Below are positions 1,083-50,687 of a stretch of DNA of 64,000 nt, one piece after another. The notes under the pieces were generated by a model, which saw only the letters and a program-made list of their open reading frames with translations, was not told the origin of the DNA and made no database searches. Positions within the stretch are counted from its first letter, which is position 1. Every line of letters begins with the position of its first letter. Source of the DNA: Escherichia coli (GTDB lineage Bacteria; Pseudomonadota; Gammaproteobacteria; Enterobacterales; Enterobacteriaceae); assembly GCF_003334335.1 (NCBI RefSeq), contig NZ_QOWQ01000008.1, one strand, 5' to 3'. The position numbers and the translations under genes are program-made.

Positions 1083-2681
1083 ATGCGTAAAACAGTGGCT
1101 TTTGGCTTTGTCGGTACCGTACTGGATTATGCCGGGCGCGGCAGTCAGCGCTGGTCAAAATGGCGTCCGACACTCTGTTTATGCCAGCAAGAATCGTTGG
1201 TCATCGATCGACTGGAATTGTTGCACGACGCCCGCTCGCGCTCGCTATTTGAAACGCTTAAACGCGATATCGCCAGCGTTTCGCCAGAAACAGAAGTGGT
1301 GAGCGTTGAGATTGAACTGCATAACCCGTGGGATTTCGAAGAGGTCTACGCCTGCCTGCATGATTTCGCCCGTGGTTACGAGTTTCAGCCAGAAAAAGAA
1401 GACTATTTAATTCACATCACCACCGGTACCCACGTCGCGCAGATTTGCTGGTTTCTGCTGGCAGAAGCGCGTTACCTGCCCGCCCGGCTGATACAATCTT
1501 CACCTCCGCGCAAAAAAGAACAGCCGCGCGGCCCAGGTGAAGTAACGATTATCGATCTCGATTTAAGCCGTTATAACGCCATCGCCAGCCGCTTTGCCGA
1601 GGAACGCCAGCAAACGCTTGATTTTCTTAAGTCCGGCATTGCCACGCGTAACCCCCACTTCAACCGCATGATTGAGCAGATCGAAAAAGTGGCGATCAAA
1701 TCCCGCGCGCCGATTCTGCTTAACGGTCCAACCGGCGCGGGCAAGTCATTTCTGGCGCGACGCATCTTCGAGTTAAAACAGGCGCGGCATCAGTTTAGCG
1801 GCGCGTTTGTGGAAGTGAACTGCGCCACCCTGCGCGGCGATACCGCCATGTCGACGCTGTTTGGTCATGTAAAAGGCGCGTTTACCGGGGCGCGGGAATC
1901 TCGTGAAGGTTTATTACGCAGCGCCAACGGCGGAATGTTGTTTCTTGATGAGATTGGCGAACTGGGCGCAGACGAACAGGCAATGCTGCTGAAAGCCATT
2001 GAAGAGAAAACCTTTTACCCGTTTGGCAGCGATCGCCAGGTGAGCAGTGATTTTCAGCTTATCGCCGGAACGGTGCGCGATTTGCGCCAGCTGGTTGCCG
2101 AAGGCAAATTTCGCGAAGATCTGTACGCGCGGATCAATCTCTGGACCTTCACCCTGCCGGGTCTACGCCAGCGCCAGGAAGATATTGAACCGAACCTGGA
2201 TTATGAAGTGGAGCGCCACGCCTCACTCACTGGCGACAGCGTGCGTTTTAACACCGAAGCGCGGCGCGCCTGGTTGGCTTTTGCGACCTCTCCCCAGGCA
2301 ACATGGCGCGGTAACTTTCGCGAACTTTCTGCCAGCGTCACGCGGATGGCCACCTTTGCCACTAGCGGACGCATCACTCTGGACGTGGTTGAAGATGAGA
2401 TAAACCGTCTGCGCTATAACTGGCAGGAGAGCCGCCCCTCCGCGCTTACGGCGTTGCTGGGCGCAGAGGCAGAAAACATCGATCTCTTCGACCGTATGCA
2501 ACTGGAACACGTTATCGCTATCTGCCGCCAGGCAAAGTCGCTTTCCGCAGCCGGACGCCAGCTTTTTGACGTTTCGCGCCAGGGCAAAGCCAGCGTCAAT
2601 GACGCGGATCGGCTACGCAAATACCTGGCGCGTTTTGGTCTGACGTGGGAAGCCGTGCAGGATCAGCACAGCTCCAGTTGA
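1083..2681 (+). CDS. rtcR: sigma54-dependent transcriptional activator RtcR
   Basis: ORF track 532 aa; Walker [12 protein letters not shown] and sigma54-contact GAFTGA motif visible; divergent from rtcB. Confidence 0.95.
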
Positions 2682-3421
2682 ATATGGTGGTCCGTCAGCA
2701 CCTGCATCACGCTTACTGGCGGCGGGGCGTCGGTGTAGACGGCATCTACCATGCTGATGCTGCCCATATTGACCATCGCGTTACGGCCAAATTTCGAGTG
2801 ATCGACAACCAGCATAACGTGGCGCGAGTTCTCAATAATGGCGCGTTTGGTGCGAACTTCGTGGTAATCGAACTCCAGCAGCGAGCCGTCGCTATCGATG
2901 CCGCTTATCCCCAGAATGCCGAAATCAAGGCGGAACTGGGAGATAAAATCGAGCGTCGCTTCGCCAATGATCCCGCCATCGCGGCTGCGTAATTCGCCAC
3001 CGGCGAGAATGATGCGAAAATCTTCTTTTACCATCAACGTGTTAGCAACGTTGAGATTGTTGGTGACAATGCGCAAATTGCTGTGATTGAGCAGTGCGTG
3101 CGCTACCGCTTCCGGCGTGGTGCCGATATCGATAAACAGCGTCGAGCCATTGGGGATTTGCTCCGCCACTTTGCGGGCGATGCGCTCTTTTTCTTCGGTC
3201 TGGGTGGCCTTGCGATCGTGCCACGGCGTGTTAACCGAACTGGAAGGCAGCGCCGCACCGCCATGATGGCGCAGGATCAGGTTTTGCTCCGCCAGCTCAT
3301 TGAGGTCGCGGCGAATAGTCTGCGGGCTGACGGAGAAATGCTCTACCAGCTCTTCGGTACTGACATAACCCTGCTGTTTAACCAGTTCGATAATACCGTT
3401 GTGACGTTGTGTTTGTTTCAT
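2663..3421 (-). CDS. glpR: glycerol-3-phosphate regulon repressor GlpR (DeoR family)
   Basis: ORF track 252 aa; N-terminal HTH; 3' end overlaps rtcR 3' end by 19 bp (convergent). Confidence 0.95.
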   Translation of the reverse strand: MKQTQRHNGIIELVKQQGYVSTEELVEHFSVSPQTIRRDLNELAEQNLILRHHGGAALPSSSVNTPWHDRKATQTEEKERIARKVAEQIPNGSTLFIDIGTTPEAVAHALLNHSNLRIVTNNLNVANTLMVKEDFRIILAGGELRSRDGGIIGEATLDFISQFRLDFGILGISGIDSDGSLLEFDYHEVRTKRAIIENSRHVMLVVDHSKFGRNAMVNMGSISMVDAVYTDAPPPVSVMQVLTDHHIQLELC

Positions 3422-3437
3422 TTATAAATCCCTGGAA

Positions 3438-4280
<843 letters not shown>

Positions 4281-4312: not shown

Positions 4313-4717
<405 letters not shown>

Positions 4718-4773
4718 TTATACATATCACTCTAAAATGTTTTTTCAATGTTACCTAAAGCGCGATTCTTTGC

Positions 4774-4795
4774 TAATATGTTCGATAACGAACAT
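4774..4795 (+). promoter_or_regulatory. glpD promoter -10 (TAATAT) overlapped by a GlpR operator palindrome
   Basis: Perfect palindrome ATGTTCGATAACGAACAT at ~4778-4795, ~35 bp upstream of glpD ATG, in the glpE/glpD divergent region. Confidence 0.65.
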
Positions 4796-4828
4796 TTATG
4801 AGCTTTAACGAAAGTGAATGAGGGCAGC

Positions 4829-6334
4829 ATGGAAACCAAAGATCTGATTGTGATAGGGGGCGGCATCAATGGTGCTGGTATCGCGGCAGACGCCGCTGGA
4901 CGCGGTTTATCCGTGCTGATGCTGGAGGCGCAGGATCTCGCTTGCGCGACCTCTTCCGCCAGTTCAAAACTCATTCACGGTGGCCTGCGCTACCTTGAGC
5001 ACTATGAATTCCGCCTGGTCAGCGAGGCGCTGGCTGAACGTGAAGTGCTGCTGAAAATGGCCCCGCATATCGCCTTCCCGATGCGTTTTCGCCTGCCACA
5101 TCGTCCGCATCTGCGCCCGGCGTGGATGATTCGCATTGGTCTGTTTATGTACGATCATCTGGGTAAACGCACCAGCTTGCCGGGATCAACTGGTTTGCGT
5201 TTTGGCGCAAATTCAGTGTTAAAACCGGAAATTAAGCGCGGATTCGAATATTCTGACTGTTGGGTAGACGACGCCCGTCTGGTACTCGCCAACGCCCAGA
5301 TGGTGGTGCGTAAAGGCGGCGAAGTGCTTACTCGGACTCGCGCCACCTCTGCTCGCCGCGAAAACGGCCTGTGGATTGTGGAAGCGGAAGATATCGATAC
5401 CGGCAAAAAATATAGCTGGCAAGCGCGCGGCTTGGTTAACGCCACCGGCCCGTGGGTGAAACAGTTCTTCGACGACGGGATGCATCTGCCTTCGCCTTAT
5501 GGCATTCGCCTGATCAAAGGCAGCCATATTGTGGTGCCGCGCGTGCATACCCAGAAGCAAGCCTACATTCTGCAAAACGAAGATAAACGTATTGTGTTCG
5601 TGATCCCGTGGATGGACGAGTTTTCCATCATCGGCACTACCGATGTCGAGTACAAAGGCGATCCGAAAGCGGTGAAGATTGAAGAGAGTGAAATCAATTA
5701 CCTGCTGAATGTGTATAACACGCACTTTAAAAAGCAGTTAAGCCGTGACGATATCGTCTGGACCTACTCCGGTGTGCGTCCGCTGTGTGATGATGAGTCC
5801 GACTCGCCGCAGGCTATTACCCGTGATTACACCCTTGATATTCATGATGAAAATGGCAAAGCACCGCTGCTGTCGGTATTCGGCGGTAAGCTGACCACCT
5901 ACCGAAAACTGGCGGAACATGCGCTGGAAAAACTAACGCCGTATTATCAGGGTATTGGCCCGGCATGGACGAAAGAGAGTGTGCTACCGGGTGGCGCCAT
6001 TGAAGGCGACCGCGACGATTATGCCGCTCGCCTGCGCCGCCGCTATCCGTTCCTGACTGAATCGCTGGCGCGTCATTACGCTCGCACTTACGGCAGCAAC
6101 AGCGAGCTGCTGCTCGGCAATGCGGGAACGGTAAGCGATCTCGGGGAAGATTTCGGTCATGAGTTCTACGAAGCGGAGCTGAAATACCTGGTGGATCACG
6201 AATGGGTCCGCCGCGCCGACGACGCCCTGTGGCGTCGCACAAAACAAGGCATGTGGCTAAATGCGGATCAACAATCTCGTGTGAGTCAGTGGCTGGTGGA
6301 GTATACGCAGCAGAGGTTATCGCTGGCGTCGTAA
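4829..6334 (+). CDS. glpD: aerobic sn-glycerol-3-phosphate dehydrogenase GlpD
   Basis: ORF track 4814..6334 (GTG) trimmed to ATG at 4829 giving 501 aa METKDLIVIGGGINGAG...; FAD-binding GxGxxG. Confidence 0.92.
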   Translation: METKDLIVIGGGINGAGIAADAAGRGLSVLMLEAQDLACATSSASSKLIHGGLRYLEHYEFRLVSEALAEREVLLKMAPHIAFPMRFRLPHRPHLRPAWMIRIGLFMYDHLGKRTSLPGSTGLRFGANSVLKPEIKRGFEYSDCWVDDARLVLANAQMVVRKGGEVLTRTRATSARRENGLWIVEAEDIDTGKKYSWQARGLVNATGPWVKQFFDDGMHLPSPYGIRLIKGSHIVVPRVHTQKQAYILQNEDKRIVFVIPWMDEFSIIGTTDVEYKGDPKAVKIEESEINYLLNVYNTHFKKQLSRDDIVWTYSGVRPLCDDESDSPQAITRDYTLDIHDENGKAPLLSVFGGKLTTYRKLAEHALEKLTPYYQGIGPAWTKESVLPGGAIEGDRDDYAARLRRRYPFLTESLARHYARTYGSNSELLLGNAGTVSDLGEDFGHEFYEAELKYLVDHEWVRRADDALWRRTKQGMWLNADQQSRVSQWLVEYTQQRLSLAS

Positions 6335-16590: not shown

Positions 16591-17694
16591 TTACGCCAGT
16601 TGACGAAGCATCCGACGCAGCGGCTCCGCGGCCCCCCACAGCAGCTGGTCGCCCACGGTAAAGGCTGACAGGAACTCTGGTCCCATATTCAGCTTACGCA
16701 GGCGGCCTACCGGCGTGGTCAGCGTGCCGGTAACGGCAGCTGGGGTTAGCTCACGCATAGTGATTTCCCGATCGTTCGGAACGACTTTCGCCCACGGATT
16801 GTGCGCAGCCAGCAGTTCTTCCACGGTCGGAATAGACACATCTTTTTTCAATTTAATAGTGAATGCCTGGCTGTGGCAGCGCAATGCCCCGACACGCACA
16901 CATAAACCATCTACCGGAATTACGGAAGATGTGTTGAGGATCTTGTTGGTTTCCGCCTGCCCTTTCCACTCTTCGCGGCTCTGACCGTTATCGAGCTGTT
17001 TGTCGATCCACGGAATCAGGCTACCCGCCAGCGGCACGCCAAAGTTATCCACCGGCAGCTCACCGCTACGGGTTAAGGTTGTGACTTTGCGTTCGATATC
17101 GAGAATAGCAGAGGACGGGGTCGCGAGTTCATCTGCCACATGGCCATACAGATGGCCCATCTGGGTTAATAACTCACGCATATGTCGCGCACCACCGCCG
17201 GAAGCGGCCTGGTAGGTTGCAACGGACACCCAATCAACAAGATCATTGGCGAATAAACCACCCAACGACATCAACATCAGGCTTACGGTACAGTTACCGC
17301 CAACAAAAGTCCTGATGCCATTATTTAATCCGTCGGTAATGACGTCCTGATTGACGGGGTCAAGAATGATGATGGCGTCATCTTTCATGCGCAGAGACGA
17401 TGCTGCGTCAATCCAGTAACCTTGCCATCCGCTTTCACGAAGCTTTGGATAGATTTCGTTGGTATAATCGCCGCCCTGACAGGTCACAATGATATCGAGG
17501 GCCTTTAGCGCCTCCAGATCAAAGGCATCCTGAAGTGTGCCAGTGGTTCCGCCAAAAGACGGCGCAGCCTGGCCAAGCTGAGAAGTAGAAAAGAAGACAG
17601 GGCGAATGGCGTCGAAGTCGCGCTCTTCAACCATGCGTTGCATGAGAACGGAGCCGACCATACCGCGCCAGCCGATAAAACCAACATTTTTCAT
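16591..17694 (-). CDS. asd: aspartate-semialdehyde dehydrogenase Asd
   Basis: ORF track 16591..17817 trimmed to ATG at 17694 giving 367 aa ([16 protein letters not shown]...). Confidence 0.92.
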
Positions 17695-48421: not shown

Positions 48422-48453
48422 TTGACTCTGGAGTCGACTCCAGAGTGTATCCT
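48422..48453 (+). promoter_or_regulatory. zntA promoter with ZntR (MerR-type) operator
   Basis: TTGACT -35, 20-bp spacer containing dyad ACTCTGGAGTCGACTCCAGAGT, -10 TATCCT; long spacer is typical of MerR-family promoters; ~35 bp upstream of zntA ATG. Confidence 0.8.
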
Positions 48454-48488: not shown

Positions 48489-50687
48489 ATGTCGACTCCT
48501 GACAATCACGGCAAGAAAGCCCCTCAATTTGCTGCGTTCAAACCGCTAACCACGGTACAGAACGCCAACGACTGTTGCTGCGACGGCGCATGTTCCAGCA
48601 CGCCAACTCTCTCTGAAAACGTCTCCGGCACCCGCTATAGCTGGAAAGTCAGCGGCATGGACTGCGCCGCCTGTGCGCGCAAGGTAGAAAATGCCGTGCG
48701 CCAGCTTGCAGGCGTGAATCAGGTGCAGGTGTTGTTCGCCACCGAAAAACTGGTGGTCGATGCCGACAATGACATTCGTGCACAAGTTGAATCTGCGCTG
48801 CAAAAAGCAGGCTATTCCCTGCGCGATGAACAGGCCGCCGAAGAACCGCAAGCATCACGCCTGAAAGAGAATCTGCCGCTGATTACGCTAATCGTGATGA
48901 TGGCAATCAGCTGGGGTCTGGAGCAGTTCAATCATCCGTTCGGGCAACTGGCGTTTATCGCGACCACGCTGGTTGGGCTGTACCCGATTGCTCGTCAGGC
49001 ATTACGGTTGATCAAATCCGGCAGCTACTTCGCCATTGAAACCTTAATGAGCGTAGCCGCTATTGGTGCACTGTTTATTGGCGCAACGGCTGAAGCTGCG
49101 ATGGTGTTGCTGCTGTTTTTGATTGGTGAACGACTGGAAGGCTGGGCCGCCAGCCGCGCGCGTCAGGGCGTTAGCGCGTTAATGGCGCTGAAACCAGAAA
49201 CCGCCACGCGCCTGCGTAAGGGTGAGCGGGAAGAGGTGGCGATTAACAGCCTGCGCCCTGGCGATGTGATTGAAGTCGCCGCAGGTGGGCGTTTGCCTGC
49301 CGACGGTAAACTGCTCTCACCGTTTGCCAGTTTTGATGAAAGCGCCCTGACCGGCGAATCCATTCCGGTGGAGCGCGCAACGGGCGATAAAGTCCCTGCT
49401 GGTGCCACCAGCGTAGACCGTCTGGTGACGTTGGAAGTGCTGTCAGAACCGGGAGCCAGCGCCATTGACCGGATTCTGAAACTGATCGAAGAAGCCGAAG
49501 AGCGTCGCGCTCCCATTGAGCGGTTTATCGACCGTTTCAGCCGTATCTATACGCCCGCGATTATGGCCGTCGCTCTGCTGGTGACGCTGGTGCCACCGCT
49601 GCTGTTTGCCGCCAGCTGGCAGGAGTGGATTTATAAAGGGCTGACGCTGCTGCTGATTGGCTGCCCGTGTGCGTTAGTTATCTCAACGCCTGCGGCGATT
49701 ACCTCCGGGCTGGCGGCGGCAGCGCGTCGTGGGGCGTTGATTAAAGGCGGAGCGGCGCTGGAACAGCTGGGTCGTGTTACTCAGGTGGCGTTTGATAAAA
49801 CCGGTACGCTGACCGTCGGTAAACCGCGCGTTACCGCGATTCATCCGGCAACGGGTATTAGTGAATCTGAACTGCTGACACTGGCGGCGGCGGTCGAGCA
49901 AGGCGCGACGCATCCACTGGCGCAAGCCATCGTACGCGAAGCACAGGTTGCTGAACTCGCCATTCCCACCGCCGAATCACAGCGGGCGCTGGTCGGGTCT
50001 GGCATTGAAGCGCAGGTTAACGGTGAGCGCGTATTGATTTGCGCTGCCGGGAAACATCCCGCTGATGCATTTACTGGTTTAATTAACGAACTGGAAAGCG
50101 CCGGGCAAACGGTAGTGCTGGTAGTACGTAACGATGACGTGCTTGGTGTCATTGCGTTACAGGATACCCTGCGCGCCGATGCTGCAACTGCCATCAGTGA
50201 ACTGAACGCGCTGGGCGTCAAAGGGGTGATCCTCACCGGCGATAATCCACGCGCAGCGGCGGCAATTGCCGGGGAGCTGGGGCTGGAGTTTAAAGCGGGC
50301 CTGTTGCCGGAAGATAAAGTCAAAGCGGTGACCGGGCTGAATCAACATGCGCCGCTGGCGATGGTCGGTGACGGTATTAACGACGCGCCAGCGATGAAAG
50401 CTGCCGCCATCGGGATTGCAATGGGTAGCGGCACAGACGTGGCGCTGGAAACCGCCGACGCAGCATTAACCCATAACCACCTGCGCGGCCTGGTGCAAAT
50501 GATTGAACTGGCACGCGCCACTCACGCCAATATCCGCCAGAACATCACTATTGCGCTGGGGCTGAAAGGGATCTTCCTCGTCACCACGCTGTTAGGGATG
50601 ACCGGGTTGTGGCTGGCAGTGCTGGCAGATACGGGGGCGACGGTGCTGGTGACAGCGAATGCGTTAAGATTGTTGCGCAGGAGATAA
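48489..50687 (+). CDS. zntA: Zn/Cd/Pb-exporting P1B-type ATPase ZntA
   Basis: ORF track 732 aa; N-terminal GMDCAACA, transmembrane CPC, phosphorylation site DKTGTLT. Confidence 0.96.
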   Translation: MSTPDNHGKKAPQFAAFKPLTTVQNANDCCCDGACSSTPTLSENVSGTRYSWKVSGMDCAACARKVENAVRQLAGVNQVQVLFATEKLVVDADNDIRAQVESALQKAGYSLRDEQAAEEPQASRLKENLPLITLIVMMAISWGLEQFNHPFGQLAFIATTLVGLYPIARQALRLIKSGSYFAIETLMSVAAIGALFIGATAEAAMVLLLFLIGERLEGWAASRARQGVSALMALKPETATRLRKGEREEVAINSLRPGDVIEVAAGGRLPADGKLLSPFASFDESALTGESIPVERATGDKVPAGATSVDRLVTLEVLSEPGASAIDRILKLIEEAEERRAPIERFIDRFSRIYTPAIMAVALLVTLVPPLLFAASWQEWIYKGLTLLLIGCPCALVISTPAAITSGLAAAARRGALIKGGAALEQLGRVTQVAFDKTGTLTVGKPRVTAIHPATGISESELLTLAAAVEQGATHPLAQAIVREAQVAELAIPTAESQRALVGSGIEAQVNGERVLICAAGKHPADAFTGLINELESAGQTVVLVVRNDDVLGVIALQDTLRADAATAISELNALGVKGVILTGDNPRAAAAIAGELGLEFKAGLLPEDKVKAVTGLNQHAPLAMVGDGINDAPAMKAAAIGIAMGSGTDVALETADAALTHNHLRGLVQMIELARATHANIRQNITIALGLKGIFLVTTLLGMTGLWLAVLADTGATVLVTANALRLLRRR

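Follow-up and report, generated by a model that had tools for sequence, protein, structure and literature searches.

Organization of the glpD locus

The window, i.e., the whole 64,000-nucleotide stretch of Escherichia coli DNA analyzed here, covers the rtcR-glpR-glpG-glpE / glpD-glgP region. In the RefSeq annotation, rtcR, glpR, glpG, and glpE lie on one side of the feature under study, and glpD, yzgL, and glgP on the other. The feature is an inverted repeat with an 18-nucleotide core, ATGTTCGATAACGAACAT, located in the 189-bp intergenic region between glpE and glpD. An earlier note, made from the letters alone, had placed it in the divergent region between these two genes, and the annotation and NCBIfam agree on that location. 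NCBIfam models identify the products of glpD and glpR (Table 1), and likewise confirm GlpE and GlpG. The 1 kb around the repeat matches many E. coli chromosomes, in which glpE and glpD are annotated, at 100% identity, and this 1-kb stretch was found in all 5426 complete E. coli genomes. Positions 4640–4830 are identical to MG1655, with 4777–4796 corresponding to NC_000913.3 3561961–3561980.

The gene for the repressor of the glp regulon, glpR, is found ~1.4 kb from the repeat as an intact open reading frame of 252 codons. In the MG1655 reference, glpR is annotated as a pseudogene; as the gene is intact here, the operator should be occupied in vivo and glp repression should be normal.

Beyond the glp genes, the window was compared with the K-12 strain ER1709. 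The first difference is a substitution at position 1769, and 28,268 of the 64,000 positions mismatch when the two sequences are read in register. The zntA start codon is at 48490 in the window and at 49267 in ER1709, in which an IS1A element is annotated at 26299–26996 near yrhA. Judged by the zntA offset, the window seems to lack this IS1A. Given the mismatches and the offset, ER1709 coordinates beyond ~26 kb are probably inapplicable, and the transfer of the ER1709 annotation to the whole window was rejected. A perfect palindrome, ACTCTGGAGTCGACTCCAGAGT, lies elsewhere in the window, at 48425–48446 (48426–48445 as a 20-mer), between a TTG and a -10-like TATCCT, and 44 nt upstream of the zntA ATG. 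We take it to be the known operator of ZntR, a MerR-type regulator, in the spacer of the zntA promoter.

Table 1. Features of the glpD control region and its regulator, in window coordinates.
Feature	Position	Strand	Basis
glpR, 252-aa DeoR-family repressor, trans-acting factor	2663–3421	-	NCBIfam NF008154, 552.8 bits (cutoff 331)
CRP-like site TGTTA-N6-TCACT, centre 4723.5	4716–4731	.	Read from sequence; half-sites conserved across genera
ArcA direct repeats ATGTTTTTTCAATGTTAC and weak third repeat	4737–4779	+	Exact sequence of Park et al. 2013; conserved across genera
Extended -10 of glpD, TGcTAATAT (hexamer TAATAT, 4774–4779)	4771–4779	+	Conservation and hand scan
GlpR operator O_D1, 20-bp dyad TATGTTCGATAACGAACATT	4777–4796	.	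20/20 against consensus; conservation
Predicted glpD start point, A	4787 (NC_000913.3 3561971)	+	Inferred from the -10 position; 42 nt before the ATG
Tandem GlpR operator O_D2, TATGAGCTTTAACGAAAGTG	4797–4816	.	14/20 against consensus
glpD, aerobic glycerol-3-phosphate dehydrogenase, regulated gene	4829–6334	+	NCBIfam NF008899, 836.6 bits; RefSeq agrees
Candidate internal GlpR operator GGTTTGCGTTTTGGCGCAAA	5192–5211	.	11/20; synonymous-site conservation 0.90
Candidate internal GlpR operator TAAGCGCGGATTCGAATATT	5233–5252	.	13/20; synonymous-site conservation 0.91

Sequence and symmetry of the O_D1 dyad

The 18-mer, at positions 4778–4795 of the local sequence ...TTTGCTAATATGTTCGATAACGAACATTTATGAGC..., is the core of a 20-bp dyad, which lies upstream of the glpD ATG at a distance of 33 nt. 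On the opposite strand the 18-mer reads ATGTTCGTTATCGAACAT. The repeat had been described as a perfect 18-bp palindrome, which it is not: eight of the nine symmetric pairs are complementary, and A4785 and A4788 remain unpaired. It is more accurately a dyad in which two perfect 7-bp arms, ATGTTCG and CGAACAT, flank a central ATAA. The span given in the earlier note, 4774–4795, is the union of the TAATAT hexamer and the 18-mer; both the sequence and the overlap that it reported are present, but the 18-mer shares just 2 bp (4778–4779) with the hexamer, and the 20-bp operator shares 3 bp. The description is corrected in these two respects, i.e., a dyad with 8/9 pairs and a -10 overlap of 2–3 bp.

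Palindromy by itself does not set this 18-mer beyond chance. The window contains 11 18-mers with at least 8/9 palindromic pairs, against ~6.8 expected at equal base frequencies. Thus, symmetry would not single out the site; the match to a regulator motif and the conservation described below do. The feature is, in fact, already known: it is the main GlpR operator of glpD, and its regulation is textbook material. We refer to it as O_D1 and to its neighbor as O_D2, which we take to be the names used in the Larson papers.

The glpD promoter and the tandem operator

The promoter element associated with the dyad is an extended -10 sequence. T4771, G4772, T4774, A4775, and T4779 are each found in 78/78 of the Enterobacteriaceae sequences compared, and TGcTAATAT is both the sole -10 candidate with a TGn extension in 4740–4822 and the sole conserved -10 element. 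A generic promoter scan of 4600–4860 reported no promoter, missing that of glpD because its -35 is poor; in its place, -10 hexamers were sought by hand and compared for conservation. With a start point near A4787, O_D1 spans -10 to +10, O_D1 and O_D2 together span -10 to +30, and the CRP-like site is centred at -63.5. The abstracts of Ye and Larson and of Yang and Larson reportedly give the same positions for O_D1, for the O_D1/O_D2 pair, and for CRP.

These positions conflict with one published coordinate. Table S7 of Park et al. 2013 (PMC3798270) lists the glpD ArcA site at -72/-30. Counted from there, transcription would start at window position 4809, downstream of the start point predicted from the promoter logic. 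The hand scan and conservation found no conserved -10-like hexamer that could serve a start at 4809, and nothing usable on an experimental glpD start point was found in Kim 2012, Ettwiller 2016, or Conway 2014. If transcription did start at 4809, the operator would occupy -32 to -13, in the spacer between -35 and -10, and would still be inside the core promoter.

Other regulators share this promoter, and glpD has been reported to be under CRP, GlpR, and ArcA control (PMC3390287). Park et al. 2013 (PMC3798270) list ATGTTTTTTCAATGTTAC, extended to ...TTGCTAATAT, as the ChIP and motif site of ArcA at glpD. This site corresponds to 4737–4779 in the window, so that the ArcA repeats extend across the -35 region as far as the GlpR operator.

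O_D2 abuts O_D1 directly, with 20-bp phasing, and its core, TGAGCT..AACGAAAGTG, varies little from genus to genus. Yang and Larson (1996) are said to have introduced the name O_D2 and to have given this site a role in cooperative binding. A tandem or helically phased arrangement is present at glpD, with the abutting O_D2 and, additionally, candidate distal sites spaced 41 bp apart inside the gene (described below). The earlier note mentioned neither the tandem and distal operators nor the CRP and ArcA sites, and did not recognize the -10 as extended.

Match to the GlpR consensus and recurrence in other glp operons

The O_D1 dyad was compared with WATGTTCGWTAWCGAACATW, reportedly the GlpR operator consensus of the Larson laboratory papers. 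It matches at 20/20 positions, a score that is partly circular, since the consensus was partly derived from the glpD site itself. The consensus has this single match in the 64 kb even when three mismatches are allowed, against 0.02 expected from shuffled sequences, and the next-best 20-mer in the window scores 16/20; the match is thus beyond chance. The optimum half-site for GlpR is said to be WATGTTCGWT, given reportedly as WATKYTCGWW in Zhao et al. 1994, and both half-sites of O_D1 fit this optimum.

Because of the partial circularity, we scanned the control regions of other glp operons in MG1655, using 2000 runs of first-order Markov simulation for each expectation. The glpF-zapB region contains three sites of at least 14/20, at positions 270, 290, and 332, where 0.19 would be expected, a result reached in 4/2000 simulations. 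The glpT-glpA region contains four sites of at least 13/20, at 384, 424, 476, and 516, with 0.85 expected and 20/2000 simulations doing as well. Two of the glpT-glpA matches fall, in the same register, on GlpR sites that RegulonDB gives for glpTQ, AAAATGTTCAAAATGACGCATGA and AAATGGTAAAAAACGAACTTCAG (Supplementary Table 1 of PMC7804116), and it was against these two sites that the consensus was cross-checked. For glpFK, four GlpR operators have been described (PMC4117983). A full-text literature search for the operator and its consensus returned no match. The assignment of the dyad to GlpR in the earlier note holds, with a full-length consensus match, a second site in tandem, and an intact glpR gene.

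Conservation of the operator

We collected 80 glpD loci, one genome per species, of which 77 upstream regions were aligned with the window to give 78 Enterobacteriaceae sequences. The right half of O_D1, CGAACATT, is almost invariant: positions 4789, 4790, 4791, and 4793–4796 are identical in 78/78 sequences, position 4792 is A in 73 and G in 5, and position 4788 is evenly divided (A 39, T 39). Where the consensus is degenerate, the variation follows it exactly, with W at 4788 and the complement of Y at 4792. In the left half, the CG core at 4783–4784 and T4779 are likewise 78/78 invariant, and variation is limited to 4781 (A 51, T 16, C 11) and 4782 (G 50, T 28). The positions regarded as critical are invariant in the 78 sequences.

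The left arm is the part that has diversified. ATGTTCG is restricted to Escherichia, Salmonella, and part of Citrobacter. Its counterpart is ATGCTCG in the C. freundii group and ATGAGCG in most of the remaining genera, with AG at 4781–4782 in 50/78 sequences. The confinement of ATGTTCG to a few genera makes the near-perfect symmetry a feature of a lineage and not a conserved property of the operator; this symmetry may be a derived state of the genera that carry it. The TT at 4781–4782 suggests a lineage-specific strengthening of O_D1. The ATGAGC half-site is also present in O_D2 and in a glpFK operator, which argues that it is a natural GlpR half-site.

Within the species, the operator is nearly fixed. 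At least 28 contiguous identical bases of 4768–4797 are present in at least 5342/5426 E. coli genomes, and the three E. coli variants sampled carry changes at 4767, 4798, or 4802, all outside O_D1.

Candidate operators inside glpD

Two operators inside glpD, O_D3 and O_D4, with a 41-bp spacing, were reportedly described by Yang and Larson in 1996 (‘Action at a distance...’). The internal coordinates reportedly assigned to them, +568–587 and +609–628, gave only 4–10/20 against the consensus when counted from a start point at 4787, and were dropped. Synonymous-site conservation across 78 glpD genes was used instead to place the internal operators. Against a gene mean of 0.71, the blocks at 5192–5211 and 5233–5252 are the top windows in the first 1.3 kb of glpD, the first codons excepted, and they are 41 bp apart. 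The block at 5233–5252 averages 12.9/20 across the 78 sequences, most genera having GTGCGCGGTTTCGAATATT. These two blocks are probably the internal operators of Yang and Larson (1996).

The excepted codons form a separate block of constraint. At 4829–4860, the first ~ten codons of glpD, third positions are near-invariant across genera (0.95–0.99), which suggests either that translation initiation constrains these codons or that they contain another regulatory site. IHF sites have been reported in this general region.

A GlpR-like dyad at the glpG/glpR junction

A second GlpR-operator-like dyad, TATTTTCGTTTTCGCGCATT, is found at 3439–3458. Its score of 16/20 ties with that of 17088–17107 as the second-best in the window. 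It lies over the end of glpG, overlapping the final six codons plus the stop, 18–37 nt upstream of the glpR start. An equivalent site scoring 16–18/20 is present in 58/68 other Enterobacteriaceae, typically as AATGTGCGAAAACGAACATA on the coding strand, and in most genera the junction dyad is nearer to the consensus (17–18/20) than in E. coli (16/20). Third-codon positions within it are conserved at 0.91, compared to 0.63 in the preceding 33 codons of glpG, and two conserved CGA codons are retained. CGA codons are rare in E. coli. The conservation of third positions, together with the retained CGA codons, suggests that the nucleotide sequence itself is constrained.

Transcription of glpR is driven from two promoters located inside glpG (PMC5442614), and the main glpEGR promoter is not regulated by GlpR, according to the Larson laboratory (PMC2593051). 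The junction dyad could autoregulate glpR by blocking transcripts from the promoters inside glpG or, alternatively, could be a distant looping partner of O_D1/O_D2. We consider it possible, but rather unlikely, that the GlpR network at this locus is larger than described, with the junction dyad acting as an autoregulatory or looping site of glpR.

Proposed mechanism of repression and alternative explanations

This analysis establishes that the dyad matches the motif, overlaps the promoter, has a tandem partner, and is conserved, that its motif recurs in other glp operons, and that the repressor gene is present. We conclude, with a probability of about 95%, that the glpD dyad is a GlpR operator at which tandem repressor dimers block RNA polymerase, and that glycerol-3-phosphate relieves this block; for GlpR binding, cooperativity, relief by the inducer, and looping, the conclusion draws on the literature or on inference. 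Repression of glpD by GlpR, with glycerol-3-phosphate as the inducer, has been reported (PMC4117983; PMC7567609), and the latter cites Ye & Larson 1988 and Yang & Larson 1996 as having mapped the glpD operators.

In general terms, repression can be rationalized as follows. A dimer of GlpR, a DeoR-family protein, would bind the inverted 10-bp half-sites TATGTTCGAT and AATGTTCGTT, and a second dimer would sit on the weaker, abutting O_D2. Occupancy of both operators would cover the end of the extended -10, the start point, and ~30 bp of the initial transcribed region, and would in this way prevent RNA polymerase binding or open complex formation. Binding of glycerol-3-phosphate to GlpR would then release the repressor and induce glpD. 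CRP and ArcA, bound upstream on the same promoter, would add catabolite and respiratory control, and the distal operators inside glpD would probably strengthen repression via looping. Occlusion of RNA polymerase, which the earlier note had proposed, is the accepted reading and fits an operator that reaches into the conserved extended -10 and lies across the predicted +1. In one synthetic study, repression was not significant when a GlpR site was put in a proximal position on lacUV5, but the operator used there was a different and weaker one, from glpTQ (PMC7804116).

Three other explanations of the dyad were weighed. It is very improbable that the dyad is bound mainly by another regulator, such as ArcA at its third repeat or a different DeoR-family protein, with GlpR acting elsewhere. 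The ArcA site that Park et al. 2013 (PMC3798270) list runs up to 4779, where it meets the dyad on its left side, but the ArcA repeats are direct, 11 bp apart, and end at 4779, leaving the dyad core (4780–4796) outside. DeoR paralogues with TGTT-type half-sites are also numerous in E. coli, and AgaR, SrlR, DeoR, YciT, YgbI, and others are weaker family matches to GlpR; however, the dyad motif recurs specifically in other glp operons, and the literature assigns glpD repression to GlpR. Even less credible is a functionless palindrome arising by chance in AT-rich intergenic DNA. The number of near-palindromic 18-mers in the window, 11 against ~7 expected, agrees with such an origin for the symmetry alone, whereas the unique 20/20 match, the conservation across genera, the presence in at least 5342/5426 E. 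coli genomes, and the motif common to glp promoters do not, and conservation effectively refutes it.

The inverted repeat could also act as a nucleic-acid structure, i.e., as a leader RNA hairpin or attenuator, or as a DNA cruciform. An RNA of 4770–4805 folds into a 7-bp stem at -9.8 kcal/mol with a z-score of -4.0, but the leader that would be transcribed, 4787–4835, folds no better than shuffled sequences (z = -0.3). With transcription predicted to start at 4787, the left arm would be upstream of the mRNA and absent from it. In most genera, moreover, A/G occupy 4781/4782 while their partners at 4792/4791 stay A/A, so that the pairs 4781–4792 and 4782–4791 are lost with no compensating change, an argument against a conserved hairpin. 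A sequence scan found no terminator-like site at the glpD promoter. On the weak folding of the leader, the uncompensated pair breaks, and the position of the left arm, the hairpin or attenuator reading was rejected, and we regard a structural role for the repeat as negligibly probable.

In summary, a GlpR operator remains the preferred explanation of the glpD dyad. The value of the site as a discovery is small, as it is a classic operator in an early-studied regulon with a sequence identical to K-12. What the analysis provides is a promoter map that consists of the CRP site, the ArcA repeats, the extended -10, the tandem operators, and the candidate distal operators.

Comparison with known systems

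The closest counterpart is O_D1 of E. coli K-12 glpD, which is reportedly the site of Ye & Larson 1988 (J Bacteriol 170:4209) and Yang & Larson 1996 (J Bacteriol 178:7090). The DNA, the gene, the -10/+1 position, and the tandem partner are all the same, with no DNA difference; the repressor gene sets this strain, in which glpR is intact, apart from MG1655 and its glpR pseudogene. The operators of glpFK (O1–O4) and glpTQ/glpACB share the same 20-bp dyad motif, arranged in tandem or helically phased arrays. Their sites score 13–15/20; only the glpD site matches the consensus in full. The position relative to the promoter also differs: the glpFK operators overlap CRP sites, while those of glpD overlap the -10/+1 region.

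Outside the glp regulon, lac O1 with its auxiliary operators and the DeoR operators of deoCABD likewise have a main dyad over the start site, and repress by occlusion combined with looping. The likeness may extend to auxiliary operators located hundreds of bp away, inside the gene, that strengthen repression; in glpD these are candidates. In contrast to lac, where the LacI repressor binds a single main operator, glpD uses the DeoR-family GlpR and a tandem main pair.
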